From: a virus
Lineage: Duplodnaviria > Caudoviricetes
DNA length: 42,019 bases
Strand: one strand, 5' to 3'
Virus record (IMG/VR): IMGVR_UViG_3300045135_001852
Span: 1 to 42,019 of that record
Every line of letters begins with the position of its first letter. Within the stretch, counting starts at the first letter, position 1. This document shows positions 15,270-41,144 of this stretch, in pieces. The position numbers and the translations under genes were made by a program. The notes under the pieces are model-generated. The model searched no databases. It saw nothing but the letters and a program-made list of their open reading frames with translations, and had not been told where the DNA came from.

Positions 15270-16598
15270 CTAATCAATAAAATACACGATGTCCGATTTA
15301 CCTTTTAGAATGTCCATAGCCTCTTGCTTGAGAATATCGTATTTTTCTTTGGTTGAAATATTTGCTCCTGTTTCTGCAATTAATACACTTTGGTCATCAT
15401 GCCGAATAATTTCAGCCGCAACAAGTTTAGTAGTTGCTTCGTGAACGGCGGCGGGGACTCTTGCATTTCCAGCAACATAAGAAACCAATACTGAATTTCT
15501 TGTATGATAGGGATAATCTTGCAAAAAGAAAATACGCCCTTCTTCCCCAAGTAACCAATAGTCGCCTGTTCTTTTCATATCCTCCTTATCCGTAAATGCG
15601 GTCAAGGTGCAGACTGTTGGAATTTCATCAGTAGCCGTAAATGTTCCTGTTCCCAAACCAGTATTTGTTGCGGCGGCAGACATGGTAATGTTTGTTGAAT
15701 CCACGATTGCACTAATTGTTGTCCCTGCGGGAATGTGGTTATTATTGTCTTCAATAACCATGCCAACCTTAAGTTTAGAAGAGTCAGCCACGACAAGGTT
15801 AGTGCTGGCGTTGGTGTGTGTGAGTGCTTGTTTTGTCGTAGCCTTGATAACGCAATCGGCCCCATCATCCCCCGAAAGTAGGGAGGAAATGAGAACGATG
15901 CCCCCGTTTCCTTCCTCTTTTTGAGCAAAGAAAAAGTCCGAAAGCGATAAATTAGAAGATGTTAGGCTTTTGTTAGAGGTAGACCCAGTATATTGAGAAG
16001 TGCTTGGAAACTCCTCATTAATTAGATGAGTAATTTCTGTGGCGGTTGTTTTGATTCCAAAGGTGTTACAAAATTCATCATTTGCTATATTGTTAAGTGT
16101 ATTTTCAGCAACCATTTCAAACTCAACACCGCTATTTGGCAATTGGAGAATAATAGAATGTATGTCTCTAAAGTTTTCATGGAGTTGAATTTTTGCTTGA
16201 GCAGATGCAATCTCTTTATATCCACTACCAGACCAAACCTGTAAAGAAACAATTTTGCGAACTTTCATTTGTCTTAATTGAATAAATCCGACATAACCAC
16301 CATAAAGAGTTTGGCCTGGATGATTTGAGTATTGAAAGTTATGTATTTCTTTTTTGGTAACAATTGGTCTGTAACTTCTTTTTAGTTTGTCATCAACTGT
16401 TCCTTCAATTCTTTTAATGATAGCACCAACTTGTTTAATTGTTGGATAAGTTGTTGTCCCAAATTCGGGAACTTGGAGTAAGTGAGCAACAGATTTGTAG
16501 TCAGTATAAAATCCATAACCATCCGAATAAGATTGAGCAAATGCACTACCTGTATGATATGAGTTATCATAATCGCTTGGTGAGGTAGTAATTGACAT
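15270..16598 (-). CDS. Head-tail adaptor (connector) protein with large insertions (442 aa)
   Basis: C-terminal VLVSYVAGNARVPAAVHEATTKLVA matches the head-tail adaptor signature (V.V.Y.AG...P..V..A); RBS AGGTGA. Confidence 0.65.
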   Translation of the reverse strand: MSITTSPSDYDNSYHTGSAFAQSYSDGYGFYTDYKSVAHLLQVPEFGTTTYPTIKQVGAIIKRIEGTVDDKLKRSYRPIVTKKEIHNFQYSNHPGQTLYGGYVGFIQLRQMKVRKIVSLQVWSGSGYKEIASAQAKIQLHENFRDIHSIILQLPNSGVEFEMVAENTLNNIANDEFCNTFGIKTTATEITHLINEEFPSTSQYTGSTSNKSLTSSNLSLSDFFFAQKEEGNGGIVLISSLLSGDDGADCVIKATTKQALTHTNASTNLVVADSSKLKVGMVIEDNNNHIPAGTTISAIVDSTNITMSAAATNTGLGTGTFTATDEIPTVCTLTAFTDKEDMKRTGDYWLLGEEGRIFFLQDYPYHTRNSVLVSYVAGNARVPAAVHEATTKLVAAEIIRHDDQSVLIAETGANISTKEKYDILKQEAMDILKGKSDIVYFID

Positions 16599-18012: not shown

Positions 18013-18660
18013 TCACATTAACCATTTAGCCCAAGCCGCCCCTTTTTGGATAGCAGAACCTAAATGAAGACCACTTGAAGGGGGCTCATAACTCATTTGT
18101 CCTTGAGCATCAATCCAATATGGCCTTCCATAGCCGTCTGTTCCACTTGGAGGGACAGGGTAGCCTGTTCCGTTGTTCATAGCACCCTGCATTTGCTGGT
18201 ATTGCTGTGTTTGTCCCGTAATACCTGCGATAGCCATACCTGCTGTTGGTTGGCCCATTCCACTACCAAACCCTTGAGACTCAAGATACTGTTGTTTTGC
18301 TAACTTTCTTTGATTTACTACTTCCGTATTAATAGCGGCATTTAGAATCTTTTGAATATCTAAATCAATATTTTCTTGAGTAATCTTTTCAAACTCTCTC
18401 ATAGCATCTGAATTGATGGTAATGTTACCAGCGTTGGTTGTAAAAGATAGTTGAGCGAGCATTTTAGAAACAACTCTTTCAACGACATCTTCCATCATTT
18501 TTTCAAGAGCAGTTAAAAACATCTCCCCATGATATTGGAAAAACTCTTCCACATGGTTATCCTGTAAAGAAAGTAAGTTATTTACATTCTTAAACTGCTG
18601 GTCATTTTGCGCTTGAACCGCATTTAAAACGGTTCCATTACTTGTTCCGAATACTCCCAT
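18013..18660 (-). CDS. Hypothetical protein with Q/G-rich region and amphipathic C-terminus (215 aa)
   Basis: ORF with GGAGG RBS; ends LGSAIQKGAAWAKWLM. Confidence 0.7.
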   Translation of the reverse strand: MGVFGTSNGTVLNAVQAQNDQQFKNVNNLLSLQDNHVEEFFQYHGEMFLTALEKMMEDVVERVVSKMLAQLSFTTNAGNITINSDAMREFEKITQENIDLDIQKILNAAINTEVVNQRKLAKQQYLESQGFGSGMGQPTAGMAIAGITGQTQQYQQMQGAMNNGTGYPVPPSGTDGYGRPYWIDAQGQMSYEPPSSGLHLGSAIQKGAAWAKWLM

Positions 18661-18662
18661 AT

Positions 18663-19316
18663 TTATTCCTCCGTTTCCTCAACTTCCTTTGCCTTAACTT
18701 CGCCTTGAATCATCAAATAGTTTAATCTATCTGCCAAGATATTGATTTGCCCGACAATTTCAATGGCCTCATTCGTGGCCGACCTATTATCTTGTAGGGT
18801 GGGTGGTTTAATAAAATAACCTGCGGCGGTGAGTGAAGCGACATCGTTCTTGCTTAGGTGAGTGAGGGGCTTTCCCGACAACGCCTTAGGCATTCTTGGC
18901 TTGAAAGCCTTGAAGTCCAAACCATGCTTCTCAGCAAGAATTTGTTGCTCAAGCATTTCCAACTGTTTGAACATAGCAGAGTGTTTAGGGCAATAGGTTC
19001 CTCTCAATGGTCTTCCTTTTGTTACTCTTTCTAAAGGAATTGGAGGCCTCAAGAAATCCCCCGATTCCCAAAGGTGATGCATTCCACAAACAACGCAACG
19101 GTCTTTGAGATTAAATTTCTTTCCGAACCTAAAGAACAAAAATGATTTCGGTTCAGGCAAAAGAACCTTAATGAGTTCTTTTTCTTTCTTTTTTGGTTTA
19201 ATAGCCATAAACTGGTATTCAACCACTTGTCCTGTTGTTCTTGCTTGTTCAATTGGATTCAACAATGGGTTGAATGCCATTGGTGCGTTCTGTCCTATAA
19301 TTTGTTGTTGATACAT
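18663..19316 (-). CDS. Putative Zn-binding protein (CVVCGMHH...YCPKH)
   Basis: Cys/His ligands and a helical C-terminus; probable start MYQQQ overlaps the upstream stop (TGATG). Confidence 0.65.
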   Translation of the reverse strand: MYQQQIIGQNAPMAFNPLLNPIEQARTTGQVVEYQFMAIKPKKKEKELIKVLLPEPKSFLFFRFGKKFNLKDRCVVCGMHHLWESGDFLRPPIPLERVTKGRPLRGTYCPKHSAMFKQLEMLEQQILAEKHGLDFKAFKPRMPKALSGKPLTHLSKNDVASLTAAGYFIKPPTLQDNRSATNEAIEIVGQINILADRLNYLMIQGEVKAKEVEETEE

Positions 19317-19858
19317 CACATAGTCCCCCATCTATTTTTCTCTTTATCTTCTTTATCGTAGTGTCTCTGTTCAATAGGCTTTACTTTTTTAACCTTTAAA
19401 TTTTGAGTATTCCAGATACAACCTGAATCCATGTCCCATCCATAAAACATATCCATGATGGCTTCTTCATCTCTGCTAACAGAATAAATTGGTTTTACCC
19501 ACGATTTATAATTTAATAATTCTATTCCATCATATGTGTAAGCAACAATATCCCATTTTATTACCACTCTATAAGGGCCAACTTTAAGGCCAAATTTTTC
19601 ATAAAAGTCTTTAGCATCTTCAAAATTTTTGATTTGTAAAATGTTTGATTGGGAAGTGTCCAAATACAAAATATATTTATATGAACGCAACCAACCATAA
19701 TCAACCATATTTCTTCTCATCCACCCACTTCCTAAACTAAACGAATACCATAAGCCTGTGGGTTTCATGCCTTCTTTTTGTCTTTTATTTTCTTTTGTTA
19801 TTTTATCGTTTTTACTAAGAGCAATTCTTTGAAGTGCCTTAATAATATCAAACCACAT
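19316..19858 (-). CDS. Tagged accessory protein (MWFDIIK), possible ADP-ribosyltransferase-like fold
   Basis: N-terminal W-x-x-I-I-K tag; motifs KPTGLWYS, YDGIEL, GWDMDSGCIWN. The fold assignment is tentative. Confidence 0.5.
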   Translation of the reverse strand: MWFDIIKALQRIALSKNDKITKENKRQKEGMKPTGLWYSFSLGSGWMRRNMVDYGWLRSYKYILYLDTSQSNILQIKNFEDAKDFYEKFGLKVGPYRVVIKWDIVAYTYDGIELLNYKSWVKPIYSVSRDEEAIMDMFYGWDMDSGCIWNTQNLKVKKVKPIEQRHYDKEDKEKNRWGTM

Positions 19859-19863
19859 AATAA

Positions 19864-20532
19864 TCAATAATCCTTTATCATTGTGGTGATTCCTCTATAA
19901 ACCATTTCGGGTTCCGACTTTGCTGATACAATATATTTAAAGCAAGGTATTCCTTTATCATTTAACTTTCTCATACCGTATTTGAATGGTTCAAAAATTT
20001 CATGTTTATCAATATCTTGTCCTTCTGCTAATGGATATTTCTTTCCCCAAATATCATATTTATTGGCCCAAATACCTACTGCCATTGGATAATCTGAGTC
20101 TCTTTTCTTTTTACCATTAGACCATGTGTTTGAAATAACTGTATCCACTAAAAATTTCCATGCTAATTGGTGGTCTAAATTTGCTTCACTATCTAAATGT
20201 CGGTGGTCTATCATAAATATTAGATATTTAACACGGCGGTCTTTCATGTCCTTTTCCCATTCTTTCCAATAAATTGCTTCTCCACCAATATCTGCGCTTC
20301 TTACTGTGTGTGAATTTCCATCAATTTTAATGTTTTTTCTTGATGCTCTATGCAAACCAACTGTTCTTTCATTAATTTGCGGCACTTCTCCTCTTGTTCT
20401 TAATTGATGACTAAGCGTTGTTTTGCCAACCATTGTTGCTCCATAAACCCCAAAGTTAATTGCGTGAACTTTTTTGTAAAATCCTATGATTGCTTCACCG
20501 ACTAAAATAGCAAAACCTGTCATTAAGGACAT
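19864..20532 (-). CDS. Ras-superfamily small GTPase, Arf/Sar-like (222 aa)
   Basis: All five G boxes in order: G1 GATMVGKT, G2 RTVG, G3 DIGG, G4 NKYD, G5 SAK. Hydrophobic N-terminal helix; RBS AGGTGG. Confidence 0.9.
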   Translation of the reverse strand: MSLMTGFAILVGEAIIGFYKKVHAINFGVYGATMVGKTTLSHQLRTRGEVPQINERTVGLHRASRKNIKIDGNSHTVRSADIGGEAIYWKEWEKDMKDRRVKYLIFMIDHRHLDSEANLDHQLAWKFLVDTVISNTWSNGKKKRDSDYPMAVGIWANKYDIWGKKYPLAEGQDIDKHEIFEPFKYGMRKLNDKGIPCFKYIVSAKSEPEMVYRGITTMIKDY

Positions 20533-20544
20533 TCATTCAACCAC

Positions 20545-21096
20545 CTAAAAATATTTATTTAACATATGTTCAAAATGTATTTTTGCTTCTTTAAACGACA
20601 CTCTAGCCGAACTCATGATTGCTTCTTCTTCATCATAAGATAATTCATACCTGCCTTCAATTTCTGCTATTAAATTCTCTAGTATTTGTTCTGCTAACTC
20701 TTTAACTCTTGAATCGGGCAAATATTTAAAATCAAAATTATCAGTTGCTATTCCTCTTGGAGTTACTACATCATCCTGTAGGGAAGTTTGGGCGGGCGAA
20801 CCGTATTCGTCATCATATTCTAGTAATTTTTTTTCTTTTGTCATCAAAGCCTGTTTTATCATGGGTTTAGCGACATCTTTAGTTTTTCCTGTATGTGAAC
20901 CTAAAAAGGCATAAACTAATGCTTCTGTCAATTTCGGAGTCCAATATCCTGTATCTTCCTCTCCTTGAGAACCTTGATATAATCTATTAAATTTCCATGA
21001 CTGTTTAGGAAAATTAGAATAGCCAGTATGAGTCAATCTGGGTTTATTTGCATCTGTTTCAATAATATATGGTTTCTTCAAAATATTCCACCACAT
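20545..21096 (-). CDS. Tagged accessory protein (MWWNILK), possible ADP-ribosyltransferase-like domain
   Basis: N-terminal tag; RLYQGS...GYWTPKLTEALVYA resembles the ART strand-1 / Y-x-T...A..YA pattern. Confidence 0.5.
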   Translation of the reverse strand: MWWNILKKPYIIETDANKPRLTHTGYSNFPKQSWKFNRLYQGSQGEEDTGYWTPKLTEALVYAFLGSHTGKTKDVAKPMIKQALMTKEKKLLEYDDEYGSPAQTSLQDDVVTPRGIATDNFDFKYLPDSRVKELAEQILENLIAEIEGRYELSYDEEEAIMSSARVSFKEAKIHFEHMLNKYF

Positions 21097-21097
21097 A

Positions 21098-21316
21098 TCA
21101 ATGCCCCCACCCGTTTAACAAAGTGTCAAACAGGAAACCCATGATGTTAATATCAAAAACACCAAGAATGTTTCCAACAAGGAAACCTGCGAGTCCAGCA
21201 CAAGAACCCCAAAACCATGCTCTCATTTTCAAAAAGAAAATGTCAGCAGAATGCGCTCTTTGTTGATTATAGGCATAATCCGAATCGGAAAAGCCCATTA
21301 AGTCGCCAAACACCAT
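21098..21316 (-). CDS. Small membrane protein (72 aa)
   Basis: Gly-rich hydrophobic segment WFWGSCAGLAGFLVGNILGVF; RBS AGGTGG. Confidence 0.7.
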   Translation of the reverse strand: MVFGDLMGFSDSDYAYNQQRAHSADIFFLKMRAWFWGSCAGLAGFLVGNILGVFDINIMGFLFDTLLNGWGH

Positions 21317-21326
21317 TTAACCACCT

Positions 21327-21716
21327 TCATTGTAGTGTGGCTAAAAATTCACTCCCGACAGTATTTTCTTCTGCTTCAACGGTTTGTGTGTATGTGAAAG
21401 GAGAGACTTGGAATTGCTTTGCGCTTTCTCGCATCTTTTGGCGTTGTTGTTCATCCCTCGCCTTTCTCTCCCAAAATGCTGCAATTTTCCTATCAAGTAG
21501 CCACATCTCAATTTTATCATTAAGGGATAAGTCAAATAGAGCCTTAACAACCATAATTGCACCAATAGTGCCTAAACCGAATAAAACAGCGTGAGCAAAC
21601 GGCCCATAAGGGAAACTTAAACCAATCATGGCATAAGTATATACATTTGCTCCACTTAATGCACCAACAAACAAAATCGTCATAATTAGACGAGTATCTT
21701 GATTCAAAGCCGCCAT
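21327..21716 (-). CDS. Two-TM membrane protein with charged C-terminal tail (129 aa), holin-like architecture
   Basis: Hydrophobic segments LIMTILFVGALSGANVYTYAMIGL and AVLFGLGTIGAIMVV; RBS GAGGTGA. Confidence 0.7.
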   Translation of the reverse strand: MAALNQDTRLIMTILFVGALSGANVYTYAMIGLSFPYGPFAHAVLFGLGTIGAIMVVKALFDLSLNDKIEMWLLDRKIAAFWERKARDEQQRQKMRESAKQFQVSPFTYTQTVEAEENTVGSEFLATLQ

Positions 21717-22777: not shown

Positions 22778-24112
22778 TCACGAAAGGTTGGTAATCTTGC
22801 CTTGACCCTTGAAGTAAGAACAACCCATCTCAGCAATTGTGCGATACAATGCTCTGTTTCCGAGTTGTCCCACACCGAATGGGTTTCCGTTAGAAATACC
22901 GTCTTCAAAGTATTGGGTAGGCTTCATGACAGCGAGCCAAAGATGGTCAGTATCAAGTAGCAACATATCCGAAATGGTTCCCGAATCAGCCGAAGTGCTT
23001 TGCATTTGAGCAACAGGAATCAAAGGAATATCGTAGTAGGTAGCCACACGGAAACCAACTTCTGCACCCTTAACACCACGAACACCGTTCACAGTTGGCA
23101 CAATTTCCTTTCTATCCATAAATCGCTCTTGACTCTGTAAGAGGTCAGAAAGCGTTTGAAGGGTATCATATCCAGTTAGAATGACCTTTGGAGAACCACC
23201 GTTCTGTCGCAATTCACGGAGAGTAGCGTTAAGAATACTCAAAGTGAATGGGCGAGAACCACCCGAAGCGTAACTGTCAGCACCATTAACGACACAATCA
23301 AGGAAAGAAGCATCATCACGGTTTGTTCCGTAAATGTGGTATGCTTCCGAAATGTCGTTGGTAATAGACGAAACAGGGAAGTTATCGCTGTCCATTTGGT
23401 CTAATTCAGCGTTAGACGAAATAATCTTGTAAAGCGAGGTGTAGTTTCGCTCAATATCTGCGGCGGCGTTGGTTTTATCTGCTTGAAGGTATGCTTCAAG
23501 AGGTGCGAGCATCATAAGGTTTTGAGCCTCTGCATGGTGCTTACCCATATCTTCTCGCATTTGCGCTCTAATGTCACCAATTCCATCGTCAATTTGAGCC
23601 ATTTCCATAGCCAATTCGCTGAAATCAAACTGATGAGCGACGGTTTTTGGACTCATAAAGAGCGTTGAGTATTCGGGAGCAATAGCGATTAAGCCATCAC
23701 CCGAAGTTGAAAGTGATGCATTTTCAGGCACACCACCAATATGGTCAAGGCGTGGAGCATCAGTTCCAGCCAAATCCGTTCCCGTTTGGGTGAAAGAGTG
23801 AGTGTTGCCCGTTCCACCAGCAGGTCTCTTTGAAAGGACTCTCCAACCGCTTGAAGTGTATGGTCTCTTTGCCATAACAGAAAGTGCATTCACTTCACGG
23901 TTAAGCATAGACCAAACTTTTTGTCCATAAAGGACATTGTAAAGATTTCCTGCAATTCCAGTTGTTGGGGAGGTTTGGGTTGCGGCATCATGACCACCAT
24001 GAATACCACTAACGGCCCCTGCCGTCTTCAAGAGCATGTTGTTTGCTCCATTGAAGTTTAATCCGTATGTTTGTGCTTCTAAGTCTGCAATAGTGTTAAT
24101 ATATCCTACCAT
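22778..24112 (-). CDS. Major capsid protein, HK97 fold (444 aa)
   Basis: Follows protease/scaffold; size and motif order fit HK97-type capsids (GGVPEN, PKTVAHQFDFSE, GGSPKVILTG, VATYYDIPLIP, MLLLDTDHL); RBS GAGGTGA. Confidence 0.85.
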   Translation of the reverse strand: MVGYINTIADLEAQTYGLNFNGANNMLLKTAGAVSGIHGGHDAATQTSPTTGIAGNLYNVLYGQKVWSMLNREVNALSVMAKRPYTSSGWRVLSKRPAGGTGNTHSFTQTGTDLAGTDAPRLDHIGGVPENASLSTSGDGLIAIAPEYSTLFMSPKTVAHQFDFSELAMEMAQIDDGIGDIRAQMREDMGKHHAEAQNLMMLAPLEAYLQADKTNAAADIERNYTSLYKIISSNAELDQMDSDNFPVSSITNDISEAYHIYGTNRDDASFLDCVVNGADSYASGGSRPFTLSILNATLRELRQNGGSPKVILTGYDTLQTLSDLLQSQERFMDRKEIVPTVNGVRGVKGAEVGFRVATYYDIPLIPVAQMQSTSADSGTISDMLLLDTDHLWLAVMKPTQYFEDGISNGNPFGVGQLGNRALYRTIAEMGCSYFKGQGKITNLS

Positions 24113-25357: not shown

Positions 25358-27877
25358 TTATCTCGGTATTTTTTGGTTAGAATATTTGTCCTCAGCAATA
25401 TTCCATAACCCTTTATCACCTTCAATATCTGCTGGTTTTTGCTCGTAACCAGTCCAAGCCAACCACATTTTTTGCCCCCCTACAGGAAGATAGCGAACAT
25501 GAAATTTCGTTTCAAACTTGTTCCCTTCTAAGAAATATTCATGGTAGCCATCCCTTTGGATTCCAAGTTTTACAGTCCCGCTATCAACGACCTTTTCTTT
25601 GTCTATATTTTGGGCTACTTCTGCTGGATATTTTCCCGCCGCCCCGAAGAGGTCAAACATTTCTTCTTCATCCTGAATATCAATTAGCCAATTAATGCTT
25701 TCATCACCGAGTCTCATCACCATATTCAAATTATTATCTTTTCTTAAATATAGTTTAAATTTACCTTTTTGGTATTTTTCAGGTGTTTTGTATTCTGCTT
25801 TCAAAATAGCACTACCATACAACTTGTTATCCTTGAAATCAATATGTTCTCTTTGGTTAGCCCATTCTTTTAGTCCCTGTAACCCACCATCAACAACATC
25901 ACCATACAGGTCTTTATGTTTTGCAGTCAAAAAATTATGAACTTCTTTTACAGTTTTTGGCCCATTATCTTGAAGATAGTTGGTAATAGCGGTGGTTAGT
26001 GTTCCCGCCTTTGTTTTCATAATGTCTTCTGCTTGAGAATACCAATCTTCTAAATTAATGGAGGCATTTTTAGACATGAGATTATCTTCTTCAAAACCAT
26101 ACACAGTAAATCCAGACATATCCGATTTACAAATAATAGTTGCTGTTCCATGAATATGGTCGGTGATTGTTATTCCTTTCTTGAGACCCTCAACAGAATA
26201 ATTTAATGATTTCTTTGTGTCTTGAGCCAGTAATTCTAAGGTGACGATTTTATCGGGATATTCAACTTCAGGAACTTCAATAACCTTTGCAGAATAAAGA
26301 GTATATCTATCGCCAGCATTTTTAACTTCATCAACCTTGACACGAATAATTTCACCGACATCAACAGAAATTTTAGTATTGAGTGCTTTGCCTACATTCA
26401 TGTATTTGATACCATTCACTTCTTGAGTGAATTTGTTTTCTTCATCAACTGGGCCAACGCCTACGGTATAAGAATACAAATTACTCTTTGTTTTTTTCTT
26501 ATCAAGAACAATAACATCTAAATCAACAAACTTTTTCCACTTAATCCACTTAGGGTTCTTTTTTGTTCCGACATAGTATGTTGAAGTAGCATCCTTTATC
26601 ACGACTCCTTCCGATGTAGGCATTTCCATGATTTCTTTAGCATATTCTTCAATATCCTTTATGTTGTCTGCTTCTCTTGTGTCTTTCTTAGATGGAAATT
26701 TCAAAACATCTGCGGAATGCTGTGAGTAATTATTGAACATGATTGTCATTCTATCTTCTAACTCTGAATCCAAGAGGGTTTGATTTTCATGTCGCATAAT
26801 ATCAAAGACATGACACTTGAGGGTTGCTTTTGGATATTTATTTTTGAAGACATGAGCAATTGTATCGGCACGATGTAGGGATTCTTCTCCATCAAATAGA
26901 ATTAATTCTGCATCAAGAATGCAATCACCAAAATGCTTCGCTCTTAATTCTTCAACAATTTCTTTGCACTTTTCAGTAATAGGTTTTTTATTGTATGAGA
27001 AGATTTTGATATTGTTATCAATCTTATGCAGTTGGACTCTCATGCCGTCATACTTTTCTTGAACAAACCATTTGCCGCTAAATCCTTTTAATTCATTAAT
27101 GTCTTCTATGTCAAATATTCTATACATTGGTTTATTAGGGATAATAAAATCAGTTAAGGATTTTTCTTCTTCCGATTTTTTTTCCTTTTTAATTGACACA
27201 GACTTTTCTTCTTTTTCAGGTTCTAAACCCTCAATGTCCAATAATTCATTCAAGTCTTTTTCTTCGTGCCTTGAGAGCATAAGCAACTCTAACATTTCCA
27301 TAGCGGCTTTAACAGCCTTTTCAGTCCGTTTGGAGTCTTTTCCATCGCCGTAATGCTCAATAATATAGAGGGCTATGTCGTCAGGTTGTAGGTCAAGACC
27401 CTCTAAACCGAAGGTAAGGTCGTCTTCTTTCATGTCCTTAATTGCATAAATTTCCTTTGATAGAGGGTTTTTATCATTTCTTAGGGCATAATGAACAAAT
27501 TTAACCATTGATTCGGGGTTGCCTAACAACTCCTCCAAGACCTTTCCCTTGAATCTTTTAGCAAAAGGGTCGGAAACCATATCGGAAGAATATCGCAAGA
27601 GTTTAACTGCTTCATACAATTCTTTTGCTTTGATAGTGGTTGGGTCTTTGGTGTCTGTATTTTCAAGAAGGTCTTCGGGAATGAAGTCTTTCATTTCGTT
27701 GCTGGCGGCATCTGTATCGTTATAGGAATCAGTAACCATCTCAACGGCTTTTCTCCAACGACCGCCATATTCTTTTGGGTCATTGGCGGCAGAAAGGTAA
27801 GCCACTCTCGTTTTCTCAAACAAGCGAAGAATTTCTTCCGAAGGACGCTTATCCTTCTCAATGTCTGAGAGGCGCAT
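25358..27877 (-). CDS. lig: ATP-dependent DNA ligase with N- and C-terminal extensions (839 aa)
   Basis: Motif I EKYDGMR, III LDAEL, IIIa VFDIM, IV EGVVIK, V WIKWK, followed by an OB domain. Confidence 0.9.
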   Translation of the reverse strand: MRLSDIEKDKRPSEEILRLFEKTRVAYLSAANDPKEYGGRWRKAVEMVTDSYNDTDAASNEMKDFIPEDLLENTDTKDPTTIKAKELYEAVKLLRYSSDMVSDPFAKRFKGKVLEELLGNPESMVKFVHYALRNDKNPLSKEIYAIKDMKEDDLTFGLEGLDLQPDDIALYIIEHYGDGKDSKRTEKAVKAAMEMLELLMLSRHEEKDLNELLDIEGLEPEKEEKSVSIKKEKKSEEEKSLTDFIIPNKPMYRIFDIEDINELKGFSGKWFVQEKYDGMRVQLHKIDNNIKIFSYNKKPITEKCKEIVEELRAKHFGDCILDAELILFDGEESLHRADTIAHVFKNKYPKATLKCHVFDIMRHENQTLLDSELEDRMTIMFNNYSQHSADVLKFPSKKDTREADNIKDIEEYAKEIMEMPTSEGVVIKDATSTYYVGTKKNPKWIKWKKFVDLDVIVLDKKKTKSNLYSYTVGVGPVDEENKFTQEVNGIKYMNVGKALNTKISVDVGEIIRVKVDEVKNAGDRYTLYSAKVIEVPEVEYPDKIVTLELLAQDTKKSLNYSVEGLKKGITITDHIHGTATIICKSDMSGFTVYGFEEDNLMSKNASINLEDWYSQAEDIMKTKAGTLTTAITNYLQDNGPKTVKEVHNFLTAKHKDLYGDVVDGGLQGLKEWANQREHIDFKDNKLYGSAILKAEYKTPEKYQKGKFKLYLRKDNNLNMVMRLGDESINWLIDIQDEEEMFDLFGAAGKYPAEVAQNIDKEKVVDSGTVKLGIQRDGYHEYFLEGNKFETKFHVRYLPVGGQKMWLAWTGYEQKPADIEGDKGLWNIAEDKYSNQKIPR

Positions 27878-33556: not shown

Positions 33557-34561
33557 TTACCGCCTTCTCTCTCTGTCTAATTCATCCAACCTTCTTGCCC
33601 TTCTCATGGCCTCTGTCGCCCGCTTTGTTCTTTCAATTTCTTCTCTCTTTCTTGCTTCTGCGGCTCTCTTTTGTTCGGCTCTTTCCGAAGCAGATTTTCT
33701 TCCTCGCTTTTGTCGGGCTTGCTTAGGTTGTCTTTGACCTTTTTTTCTTGGAGACTGTCTTGTAGCAACTTGTCTCATTCTTTGTTGCTCTAACTTTTTT
33801 CTTCTTTGCATTTCTGCTTCTTGCTCTTTTTTCTTTTGTGCGGGAGACATCATTCTTTTTCTTCTTCGTTCTCGCACCAGTTCTCTTTTGTATGGATTTG
33901 ACATTCCCGTCATTAATTTTTGATGTATTGCATTTAATTCAATTTCGTCGGTTAATGATTTTAACCAATCCCTATCAATTATTGAAAGATAATTCTCATT
34001 TGGTAAAAGGCTTACAGATTTATTTGACTTTGAGCGCGCCTTAATAAAATCATAATAATTAAAACCTAAATAATGTTCCATAAGAGGAACCAATTGAGCC
34101 ATAATTTTTCTGTTTAATTTAATTCTTGTCTTTCCATATTCAAAAAGCCTTCGGGCTTCCGAGAGAACATACTCACTATATTTACCTGTTTTTTTACCAG
34201 TTACTATTGGTCTTTTCTCTTCAACTATATCTTCCCAATATTCTATATCTCTTTTTTTGTCTAAATAGTTTTTAGCATACGATTTAGCCCACCTTAATAT
34301 AAAAATTCTATCTAAATCATCTTGAGTAAATTCACCATAATATACATCAAGGAAAAAATCTTCATCTTTATATTTCGCAGGAATTTCGCTATTCAATCTT
34401 TTATATAGTCTTATTTCATCGGATAATTTCATAAGCCTATCTTCAAAGCCCTTAGCGTAAGAAGGAACAGGTTTTGCAAATTCATCCCATTTATTTGGTC
34501 TTCTTAATATAGGCGTATTTTCAAAATCAAATCTTTTCTTCTTTAGGGTATCAAACCACAT
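33557..34561 (-). CDS. Tagged accessory protein (MWFDTLK, 334 aa) with very basic R/K/Q-rich C-terminal third
   Basis: N-terminal tag; start overlaps the end of the LAGLIDADG gene. Confidence 0.7.
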   Translation of the reverse strand: MWFDTLKKKRFDFENTPILRRPNKWDEFAKPVPSYAKGFEDRLMKLSDEIRLYKRLNSEIPAKYKDEDFFLDVYYGEFTQDDLDRIFILRWAKSYAKNYLDKKRDIEYWEDIVEEKRPIVTGKKTGKYSEYVLSEARRLFEYGKTRIKLNRKIMAQLVPLMEHYLGFNYYDFIKARSKSNKSVSLLPNENYLSIIDRDWLKSLTDEIELNAIHQKLMTGMSNPYKRELVRERRRKRMMSPAQKKKEQEAEMQRRKKLEQQRMRQVATRQSPRKKGQRQPKQARQKRGRKSASERAEQKRAAEARKREEIERTKRATEAMRRARRLDELDRERRR

Positions 34562-35891
34562 TTTGCATTCCCCCAATTTGTTCAATAGAGTCCATTACCG
34601 ACATTTTACAATTGTCTTTGTATTTTTGAATATCATCAAGAACGATATTCTCCTTAGCCCAATCAAAACCTACATGGTCTTTATGGTTTTCCCACTTCAT
34701 GAGTTTGAAGATTTCATCACAGCGACTTTTATACCAATCAGCCTTCTTGTAAGATTTTTTCATACGAATCAATTCCAATAGTAATTTTGCATTTCCTTTC
34801 TTTAAACGAAAGTGAGGCAAGCATTTCGTCAATAGATTCACTACATCATCTTGAGAGTAAAAATTCAACCTGTTGATAAGCCGTGTGTCTTGGGGAGATT
34901 TTTGGTCTAAGTGCATACGGCCAAAACCAATTGATTTATGCATCTCGGTCATAAATGCCTTCCCTCTTTCTCCTGTTGCGACCAATCCTACTCTTGGATT
35001 CATCTTGCGGTCAAGAGTAATATAGCCATCGGAGTCAATAAATGCGGCAGTATAAGCCCAAATATTTTTCTTAATTTCATCAGGTATTTTGTATAACGAA
35101 CCCTTTACCGAAACAATACCCAACTTTTTAATTTCTTGAGAAATAACACTTGGACTACAACTCTTGTGTAAATCGCTTGGCATTCGGTCGTGAATTTCGG
35201 AAGCGGTGATGCCATGCTTCTCACAGACTGCTTTCAAAATAAAATCTCTTTGCCTCTCTTTCTTTGATTTGTTCAAAGACTGGTTGGTGATTTTAGCGAT
35301 GCACTCTCTAAAATTTCTCTTGGCAAAAGACATCTCTTTTGAAAGGCGGGAATACTCCTGTCCATAGACCATTCCTTTCTGTTCTGTTTCTGCTTCCCAG
35401 TATTTACAAAGAGCATCAACAACTTCCCTTCTTTCCTCAAGGCTTTTCATCTTGTTTAATTTTTGCAAATCCTTTTCATTGAACCTCATTTTAAGAAGAG
35501 ACTCTTTGTAGGGTGCTAACCAATAAATGGAATCAATGCACTTAAACAAATGGTCTGAGTAGGCATCAATCATTGTATCAATTGCCTTTGACATTTTATC
35601 TCTATTCTCACCCTTCAACTTTCTTCTTGACATTCTCATTTGCTTCACAAGGTCGGGAATGTTTCTTTCTTGCACAACATATTCGGGCGGAAAATTTTCT
35701 AAAGCCTTTCTTGCCTCAGTAGCATTAATTTTCAAAACATCACAAAGCGTTGAAATTTCTTCATTTTCGGACATCACATAATCCGAATAAAGAGTTTTGG
35801 AAAGCATTTTTTCTTCTTGAAAAATTTCGGTATCGGCATCCCTATTTGCCTCCTCTTTGATTTCTTCCTCTCTTCTTTGAAGTTCGGCCAA
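34551..35891 (-). CDS. Helical + HTH + LAGLIDADG endonuclease-domain protein (possibly starting at ATT 35939)
   Basis: WAYTAAFIDSDGYI motif, then LLTKCLPHFRLKK; HTH-like GITASEIHDRM...SVISQEIKKL precedes it. Confidence 0.8.
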   Translation of the reverse strand: MAELQRREEEIKEEANRDADTEIFQEEKMLSKTLYSDYVMSENEEISTLCDVLKINATEARKALENFPPEYVVQERNIPDLVKQMRMSRRKLKGENRDKMSKAIDTMIDAYSDHLFKCIDSIYWLAPYKESLLKMRFNEKDLQKLNKMKSLEERREVVDALCKYWEAETEQKGMVYGQEYSRLSKEMSFAKRNFRECIAKITNQSLNKSKKERQRDFILKAVCEKHGITASEIHDRMPSDLHKSCSPSVISQEIKKLGIVSVKGSLYKIPDEIKKNIWAYTAAFIDSDGYITLDRKMNPRVGLVATGERGKAFMTEMHKSIGFGRMHLDQKSPQDTRLINRLNFYSQDDVVNLLTKCLPHFRLKKGNAKLLLELIRMKKSYKKADWYKSRCDEIFKLMKWENHKDHVGFDWAKENIVLDDIQKYKDNCKMSVMDSIEQIGGMQNVV

Positions 35892-40847: not shown

Positions 40848-41144
40848 CTATCCCCTCATAATCTTGCTTGGAAACCTTTTACAATCCTCATACACATTAA
40901 TCATTTGAACCAGTCTTTCTTTGAAACCTTCGGGCAAGTTTGAACTACTTGTTAGGAAATTCATGTGTCGCAAAATTTGCTTGCATCCCGAATACTGAAA
41001 TCTTATTGAGTATTTAGGTTCCAAAGTAGGGTCATTTGTCGCTTCTCCCAAGTCTCTCATAAACTCATCTGCTTCTCTTTTTAATTCGGCACAGCAGAAA
41101 TCCTCAGTATTCATTTCCACCCTTTTCAAAATATCTTGCCACAT
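40848..41144 (-). CDS. Tagged accessory protein (MWQDILK, 98 aa; start corrected)
   Basis: AGGTGA RBS 4 nt before the ATG; CC...C...C pattern. Confidence 0.7.
   Translation of the reverse strand: MWQDILKRVEMNTEDFCCAELKREADEFMRDLGEATNDPTLEPKYSIRFQYSGCKQILRHMNFLTSSSNLPEGFKERLVQMINVYEDCKRFPSKIMRG

Follow-up and report, generated by a model that had tools for sequence, protein, structure and literature searches.

The window analysed here, the whole stretch of 42,019 nucleotides, is a linear virus record of 42 kb that is 45% complete, and it encodes a terminase, a portal protein, an embedded DNA ligase, a protease, a capsid protein, a tail tube protein and a tape measure protein. In the accessible part of the published magrovirus description (PMC5434244), the structural module of these viruses consists of head-tail genes with an ATP-dependent ligase embedded among them. 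Since the layout of the window matches this module and a close relative exists in Poseidoniales virus YSH_150918, the window is a magrovirus, the presumed hosts of which are the Marine Group II archaea (Poseidoniales), abundant archaea of the ocean. Between the head genes and the neck/tail genes, a small GTPase of 222 aa is encoded on the minus strand (19864..20532), with an ATG start that is preceded by GGTGG. This protein is 80% identical to P0070, which is gp088 of Poseidoniales virus YSH_150918.

The GTPase contains the complete G1–G5 boxes that an earlier note had read from the letters, and the motifs listed there are all present: G1 GATMVGKT (residues 31–38), G2 R56-T57-V-G, G3 D81-I-G-G-E85 followed by YWKEW, LIFMID (104–109), ANKYD (156–160) and SAK (203–205). 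Across 50 close relatives, residues G31, G36, K37, T38, T57, D81, G84, E85, N157, K158, D160, S203, A204 and K205 are invariant. Of 623 candidates returned by the searches, 392 are relatives at E ≤ 0.001, and the comparison of 52 equal-length genes revealed strong purifying selection, with a median pN of 0.066 versus a pS of 0.54 (uncorrected). In the AlphaFold2 model (pLDDT 86, pTM 0.82), an N-terminal helix spanning residues 3–22 precedes a G-domain fold. The number of relatives, the pN/pS values and the confident model combined demonstrate that this ORF did not arise by chance. Structure prediction, suggested in the earlier note as a check, thus returned a small GTPase with confidence, and the hydrophobic N-terminal helix described there was recovered as a predicted helix, hydrophobic at first and then amphipathic (best 11-mer moment 0.55, 18-mer hydrophobicity 0.90). 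By sequence and by model, the protein is a Ras-superfamily small GTPase with predicted GTP binding and hydrolysis. Such a GTPase with a membrane-type helix had been considered unusual for a head-tail virus, and this view is supported.

The same note had regarded the GTPase as a stand-alone protein. Instead, it is the core of a block of five genes in the order TM1-TM2-GTPase-ZN-Q, all on the minus strand. The block is situated between two landmarks that are not part of it, namely the major capsid protein gene upstream (22778..24112, minus) and the gene of a probable head-tail adaptor downstream (15270..16598, minus), the latter inferred from its position and phrog_17057. The first block gene, TM1 (21327..21716), encodes a predicted membrane protein of 129 aa, in which one hydrophobic segment, around residue 43, is strong and another, towards the N-terminus, is weaker, while the C-terminal part is charged; 174 of 176 relatives have one or two predicted TM segments. 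TM1 belongs to no family in Pfam, PHROG or NCBIfam, and its link to the TM1 of other clades is mainly positional, the profile match being weak (Probab 21, E 0.001). TM2 (21098..21316) encodes a predicted single-pass membrane protein of 72 aa, one TM segment being predicted in 166 of 175 relatives, and its cross-clade link is likewise weak by profile (Probab 22) and positional.

Downstream of the GTPase, ZN (18663..19331) encodes a soluble protein of 222 aa with C-x2-[C/D]-G and C-P-x-H motifs, which form a predicted single zinc site and were both found in 184 of 187 relatives. ZN is homologous across clades by profile (Probab 94–96 to clades 2a and 3), while no convincing Pfam family was found in 80 members. 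We consider ZN a candidate regulator or effector of the GTPase; the predicted complex of the two proteins scored 0.01, which is no evidence either way. The last core gene, Q (18013..18660), encodes a Gln/Gly/Met-rich protein of 215 aa, the helical core of which is conserved and the C-terminal tail of which is rich in Gly, and it is homologous across clades by profile as well (Probab 90–95 to clades 2b and 3). Two non-core insertions of 183 aa each, also on the minus strand, interrupt the block in the window: an orphan (20545..21096), present in 4 of 80 related loci, and a member of phrog_8582, a family of unknown function (19316..19867), present in 2 of 80.

To describe the conservation of the block, 244 GTPase loci were fetched, of which 26 were set aside as largely re-fetched contigs, together with the locus L276. 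Of the 217 loci left, 182 had enough flanking sequence, and all five genes occur in the fixed order in 179 of these 182 loci, which were not dereplicated by species. In the other three, the TM2 frame is present, its start being uncalled. An independent sample was chosen by the capsid gene: among the best 80 of 598 such loci, 41 include 3.5 kb or more of downstream sequence, and the five genes are complete in all 41. In addition, the identity of the GTPase exceeded that of the capsid protein in 28 of 28 capsid-chosen loci with a capsid identity below 75% (medians of 84 and 68%). Within single loci, no paralogous GTPases were found in L082–L161. The distribution among related viruses, which had also been proposed as a check, hence reveals a block that is core in the sampled magroviruses and locked in its order.

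The position of the block is not fixed, as shown by three placements. Magroviruses were sampled as two clades, and in the clade of the window the block follows the capsid gene and precedes the neck genes in every sufficiently long locus. In the second clade, the block is followed by a two-pass membrane gene and by a gene labelled terS-like from its position and look. The third placement, after a thermosome gene, was observed in four loci of another virus type. The earlier description of the GTPase as lying inside the virion operon is thus true in this window but incidental, since the block sits elsewhere in other viruses. In clade 2 and in G017, a genome of a second carrier group described below, the block ends with a two-pass holin-like gene of about 85 aa (L085:12314-12571 and relatives), which was not found in the magrovirus G003 or in G012.

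On the 4.7-kb contig L276, the gene of a distant GTPase is flanked by those of a membrane protein of 74 aa and a Gln/Gly/Met-rich protein of 251 aa (positions 336-2030), and downstream lie HK97-gp10-like and protease genes that belong to another head-tail virus. These neighbours were tried as homologues of TM2 and Q and rejected (Probab under 1); the likeness is compositional, and only the GTPase is demonstrably related. No match to the window GTPase was found among 50,697 GenBank phage records, and no IMG/VR locus was found for P0133.

The second group of carriers consists of ten marine records of up to 140 kb (G006, G007 and G011–G018; loci L290–L341), three of which are complete genomes of 128–140 kb with terminal repeats. 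Of six magrovirus head-tail proteins, G006 (110 kb) and G007 match none, whereas the magroviruses G003 and G004 match all. Among the genes of G006 are those for a 238-aa HerA-type ATPase, a transglutaminase-like protein, PolB, the large subunit of RNA polymerase and a thermosome. The group shares the small HerA-type ATPase, an Arg/Lys-rich membrane protein and a conserved capsid candidate of 200 aa, and its records additionally encode an archaeal thermosome and RNA polymerase subunits of the archaeal type. The capsid candidate, which is the best-conserved structural-region protein of G006, found 19 loci, comprising G006 and G007, seven short contigs, two further loci, and the eight records that were searched. 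The GTPase is present in 8 of the 8 records chosen in this way, and TM1 and ZN adjoin it in all 10 loci of the group. When the complete genome G017 was compared with the complete magrovirus G003, one protein, the GTPase, was in common, and the comparison with G004 gave four (thermosome, TM1, GTPase and ZN). G017 additionally carries Q and the two-pass gene.

Neither a terminase nor a portal matched in the 4 records of this group that were searched for them, while the positive control G004 did match, and no HK97 capsid was detected. The 98 longer ORFs of G017 yielded no head, portal, protease or tape-measure family; two large G017 proteins match tail-fibre and tail-protein families over short stretches. 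The ATPase of 238–243 aa matches Pfam HerA and also a PHROG labelled 'terminase large subunit'. The capsid candidate was modelled with a pLDDT of 33, and searches with it gave no match; the ATPase and the capsid candidate had no match among the 50,697 GenBank phage records, and a neighbouring candidate had no usable Atlas match. Because a small HerA/FtsK-type ATPase is found and terminase, portal and HK97 capsid are not, these are probably tailless, putatively jelly-roll, archaeal viruses, with the thermosome and the RNA polymerase pointing to an archaeal host. The group is probably undescribed, as literature searches returned no publication on a tailless Poseidoniales virus. In the best tree, the GTPases of this group sit with magrovirus clade 2, but monophyly of the tailed-virus GTPases was not rejected (p-AU 0.17), which is compatible with transfer in either direction. 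Two of the complete genomes contain an extra gene directly before the GTPase (L320:580-1485 and L327:729-1478), the product of which has a very acidic, Pro-rich C-terminus.

Regarding the family of the GTPase, the earlier note had called it Arf/Sar-like, and the searches agree in part. Single-sequence comparison gave MMR_HSR1 below the cut-off and a weak match to TIGR00231, and searches of solved structures with the single sequence and with a close profile reached best E values of 0.25 and 0.08, respectively. With the model as query, Foldseek listed Rabs first and Arfs at similar E-values (about 1e-9 to Rab, Arf and Ras). Exhaustive structural alignment gave Z scores in the range of 15–18.6, with Arf6 at 18.6 (rmsd 2.5, 163 aligned residues), a Lokiarchaeal Rag-like protein at 18.2, SRbeta at 18.0, mimivirus Rab at 17.9 and Sar1 at 17.4. 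The structure searches with the model thus identify the Ras superfamily and favour no single family within it. With a profile of 80 viral members, the best small GTPases of solved structure were 8OUN (E 7e-6), Arl8 (4e-4) and Rab33 (2e-3); RecA concatemers outscored them through repeated P-loop matches. As the Arf-like proteins 8OUN and Arl8 lead the small GTPases in this search, the protein leans towards Arf.

Detailed comparison with the signatures of the Arf family showed how far this lean extends. Leu-Asp at positions 2–3 of G1 is given as an Arf criterion in the accessible text of PMC11914678, and the available portion of PMC6724607 describes a switch II signature and an aromatic triad at the effector site. 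The G1 of the window clade contains no Leu-Asp, being GATMVGKT in 60 of 63 members and GSTMVGKT in 3. This criterion is not absolute, since GLD, although present in 9 of 10 Arf rows of eukaryote type, occurs in 0 of 6 ArfR-like rows. The Gly at position 3 of G3 (D-x-G-G) is present as D81-I-G-G. The switch II signature, which we take to read W-D-x-G-G-Q-x3-R-x2-W, was found in full in 9 of 10 Arf rows, while the window sequence A-D-I-G-G-E-A-I-Y-W-K-E-W retains just the D, the GG and the last W, with Trp in place of the Arg of R-x-x-W. At the positions that presumably correspond to the aromatic triad, the window GTPase has L60, A80 and D95, and the triad is therefore absent. The spacing from the switch I Thr to the G3 Asp, counted by hand, is 24 residues in the window compared with 19 in Arf and ArfR-like proteins and 23 in Rab, and the interswitch of clades 2 and 3 is longer still than that of the window. 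An N-terminal amphipathic helix is shared with the Arfs; the viral helix is longer and more hydrophobic than in the Arf rows and lacks Gly2. Pfam Arf does not match the window GTPase. As a membership test this family was discarded, since 12 of 14 control genomes exceeded its cut-off and 0 of 3 complete magroviruses gave a match.

A tree of 81 rows and 174 columns was built from the viral GTPases, bacterial rows recruited by their likeness to the viral ones, and reference rows that are unnamed or loosely named hits and include no Sar1, SRbeta, Rag, Gα, Rup or ArvA; its branches are long. In this tree, the viral GTPases form one starred clade (98/93), which is nested in a larger starred clade (96/91) that also includes bacterial and unplaced relatives; the larger clade stands apart from eukaryotic Arfs, Rabs and MglA. 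In topology tests on a 41-row subset, the grouping of the viral GTPases with eukaryotic Arfs to the exclusion of the bacterial relatives was rejected (p-AU 0.0005), while the whole viral-bacterial family as sister to Arf/Arl/ArfR was allowed (p-AU 0.51). A HMMER pass over 1.84 billion representatives retrieved only 78 family members at E ≤ 0.001, and the nearest cellular relatives that can be named are proteins of Chloroflexota (Anaerolineae). The proposed HMM and phylogeny check therefore places the protein among the small GTPases, in a clade with bacterial relatives and not within the eukaryotic Arfs. Of the Arf/Sar-like assignment, the lean by profile and structure and the helix stand, whereas the sequence signatures are missing and an Arf-only clade is rejected. 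The protein belongs to a separate, hitherto undescribed, Arf-leaning family of viral and bacterial GTPases outside Arf or Sar1 proper.

A bona fide Arf/Sar or Asgard ArfR protein that was captured from a cell and works by an interswitch toggle would account for the leading profile matches 8OUN and Arl8, for the G-domain fold with the retained D-x-G-G, the switch II Trp and the membrane-type helix, and for the allowed sister relationship to Arf/Arl/ArfR. Such a capture is nevertheless very improbable, because GAT replaces GLD, A-D-I-G-G-E replaces W-D-I-G-G-Q with loss of both the Trp before D-x-G-G and the Gln, the Arg of R-x-x-W and Gly2 are missing, the interswitch is longer, and Pfam Arf is unmatched. 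Unlike an Arf, the viral protein also groups with bacterial relatives and brings four partners of its own. The bearing on the origin of archaeal Arfs that had been suggested is slight, since the nearest named cellular relatives are Chloroflexota. These Anaerolineae GTPases resemble the viral family in profile (Probab 98, E 1e-13), in the motif D-V-G-G-E and in a long hydrophobic N-terminus, and they share its starred clade; in contrast, they are chromosomal and lack the membrane block. In the Anaerolineae loci L162–L167, 5 of 6 full-length loci have, after the GTPase gene, a conserved orphan that is about 215 aa long and matches no Pfam family, and the two genes are an uncharacterised two-gene bacterial switch. 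The orphan was compared with ZN, Q and TM1 and is unrelated to them. The Ras, Rab and Arf proteins of giant viruses are likewise virus-encoded small GTPases and gave the top matches in the viral structure library (among them the mimivirus Rab noted above), but these proteins are of eukaryote type and their viruses infect eukaryotes. The Arfs encoded on IMG/VR contigs fall with eukaryotic Arf, apart from the family of the window GTPase.

In the window clade, the position of the catalytic Gln is occupied by Glu85 in 63 of 63 members, in agreement with the Glu reported in the earlier note, although this is specific to the clade. In the second clade (n=125), the position holds Q in 76 members, E in 25, D in 17 and H in 4, with 3 unread, and in the third, tailless-type carrier group it is mostly H. 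This variation shows that Glu85 is not a fixed catalytic residue. The Arg-Thr pair of switch I (Arg56-Thr57) is more constant, being present in 63/63 members of the window clade, 124/125 of the second clade and 8/10 tailless-type loci; the Arg is absent in the remaining 2/10, and the L276 clade has K-T. In MglA, Arg53 adjoins the switch I residue Thr54 and is an in-cis arginine finger, according to the accessible part of PMC3199381, and by analogy Arg56 may play the same role. The MglA/MglB systems of Myxococcus and Thermus described there share with the window GTPase the Arg directly before the switch I Thr. They differ in the T-P-G-Q at G3 and in the lack of a membrane helix, and MglA-like rows form a distant clade; no MglB/roadblock family was found among the neighbours of the GTPase.

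The genomic position of the block varies, and its carriers can have almost nothing else in common; it is thus independent of the capsid, which argues for a role at the host membrane. Being core, locked in order, conserved above the capsid protein, rich in membrane anchors and indifferent to the capsid, it points to a host-membrane need common to its carriers. The block therefore likely serves the host membrane rather than virion building. The GTPase is predicted to be the switch of a portable five-gene module that acts on the host membrane late in infection, with virion exit as the likeliest task; we put the chances of this reading at about even. We infer the following steps for such a module. 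TM1 and TM2, together with the third, two-pass protein in some clades, would build up in the host membrane, where the GTPase would dock through its N-terminal helix. In its GTP state, it might gather the membrane proteins with Q into a lesion or a budding site, with ZN acting as a regulator. Hydrolysis would proceed through the conserved Arg56 next to Thr57, as with Arg53-Thr54 of MglA, and the switch II Gln would not be strictly required.

The accessible text of PMC10791045 describes the machinery by which tailed archaeal viruses lyse and leave their host cells as 'completely uncharacterized'. Small membrane proteins beside late genes, as present in the block, are the usual look of a lysis cassette, and phage holin cassettes and the predicted holins of Adrikavirales (PMC11706807, partly accessible) likewise consist of small one- or two-pass proteins amid late genes. 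Unlike these cassettes, the block includes the GTPase and two soluble partners as core genes and has no endolysin; no module protein matches a holin or another lysis family, and no wall hydrolase was found adjacent to the block. Holins are poorly conserved, so the missing holin match weighs little. We know of no lysis system that uses a GTPase. The chromosomal Chloroflexota relatives, with their unrelated partner and without the block, speak against exit, in that the GTPase family alone does not imply lysis.

The main rival to exit is a non-lytic remodelling of the host membrane, which might release vesicles, form a virus factory bound to membrane or block division so that the infected cell enlarges. 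In the accessible part of PMC10927574, the ArvA (OapA)-ArvB-ArvC operon of Euryarchaeota drives vesicle formation, and ArvA is described as a small GTPase with an N-terminal hydrophobic helix, a PF01926 domain of Arf leaning and a zinc partner encoded downstream. The viral block parallels this architecture, ArvA being compared by description, in its archaeal setting, its helix-bearing small GTPase and its downstream zinc-motif partner; the Arf-like helix also fits remodelling, a GTP switch would suit a reversible process better than one-off lysis, and independence of the capsid fits remodelling and exit equally well. However, the block is virus-encoded and contains two membrane proteins and a Gln-rich protein in place of ArvB and ArvC. 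ArvB (PF09846) was found beside the GTPase in 0 of 5 complete viruses, with 2 of 14 control genomes over the cut-off, and the 80 ZN members gave no Pfam match to the ArvC zinc-ribbon family. The block also lies amid late morphogenesis genes in both magrovirus clades, and remodelling without lysis thus appears rather doubtful.

A membrane-anchored device for superinfection exclusion or counter-defence, which would sense or block events at the host membrane, would likewise combine small membrane proteins with an NTPase switch and could be common to viruses that are unrelated but probably encounter the same hosts. Conflict genes are usually patchy and fast-changing, whereas the block is near-universal, locked in order and more conserved than the capsid protein, and this makes such a device unlikely. 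The GTPase and its partners could also be virion or assembly factors involved in head completion, neck joining or DNA delivery, as the block is core in the window clade and lies there between the capsid and neck genes in all loci that are long enough. This is contradicted by clade 2, where the block precedes the terS-like gene, and by the presence of the block in viruses without detectable head-tail genes, and one factor would hardly serve two unrelated capsids; an assembly role is accordingly very unlikely. Returning to exit, the more specific proposal is that a GTPase-timed module for membrane breaking or budding has been exchanged between magroviruses and undescribed large, tailless, RNA-polymerase-encoding marine archaeal viruses, which we regard as possible, with the chances somewhat short of even.

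Searches of the literature, in which subscription papers were not covered, revealed no link between magroviruses and a GTPase. The magrovirus papers, as far as they are accessible, contain no 'GTP' in the main text and no GTPase terms in the supplements, and a search for Poseidoniales viruses together with GTPase returned unrelated papers only, as judged from their listing. No publication on the five-gene block was found. How tailed viruses exit from archaeal cells without peptidoglycan is an open question in the accessible part of PMC10791045, and the block offers five clonable exit candidates from a widespread group of ocean viruses with uncultured hosts. Membrane-anchored, Arf-leaning small GTPases now extend to prokaryotic viruses and bacteria as a separate family, and caution is advisable when 'Arf-like' labels are taken as evidence on eukaryote origins. 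If the proposed exit function is true, the module would be the lysis system that has been missing for tailed archaeal viruses, and prokaryotic viruses from two capsid lineages without mutual relationship would rely on a small-GTPase switch for egress.

Further features were observed in the window. An ATP-dependent DNA ligase is encoded within the structural module (25358-27877) and a probable homing endonuclease after the terminase (34551-35891), both of which have been reported for magroviruses in the accessible text of PMC5434244. The orphan inserted in the block (20545..21096) begins with the motif M-x-W-x-x-I-L-K, and eleven minus-strand ORFs of the window, counted with no chance control, start with M-(x)-W-x-x-[IV]-[LI]-K, both block insertions among them (starts at 41144, 40685, 40372, 40130, 39744, 39046, 38498, 37888, 33379, 21096 and 19858). 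This motif is perhaps a common N-terminal tag on variable genes, serving as a targeting or packaging signal.
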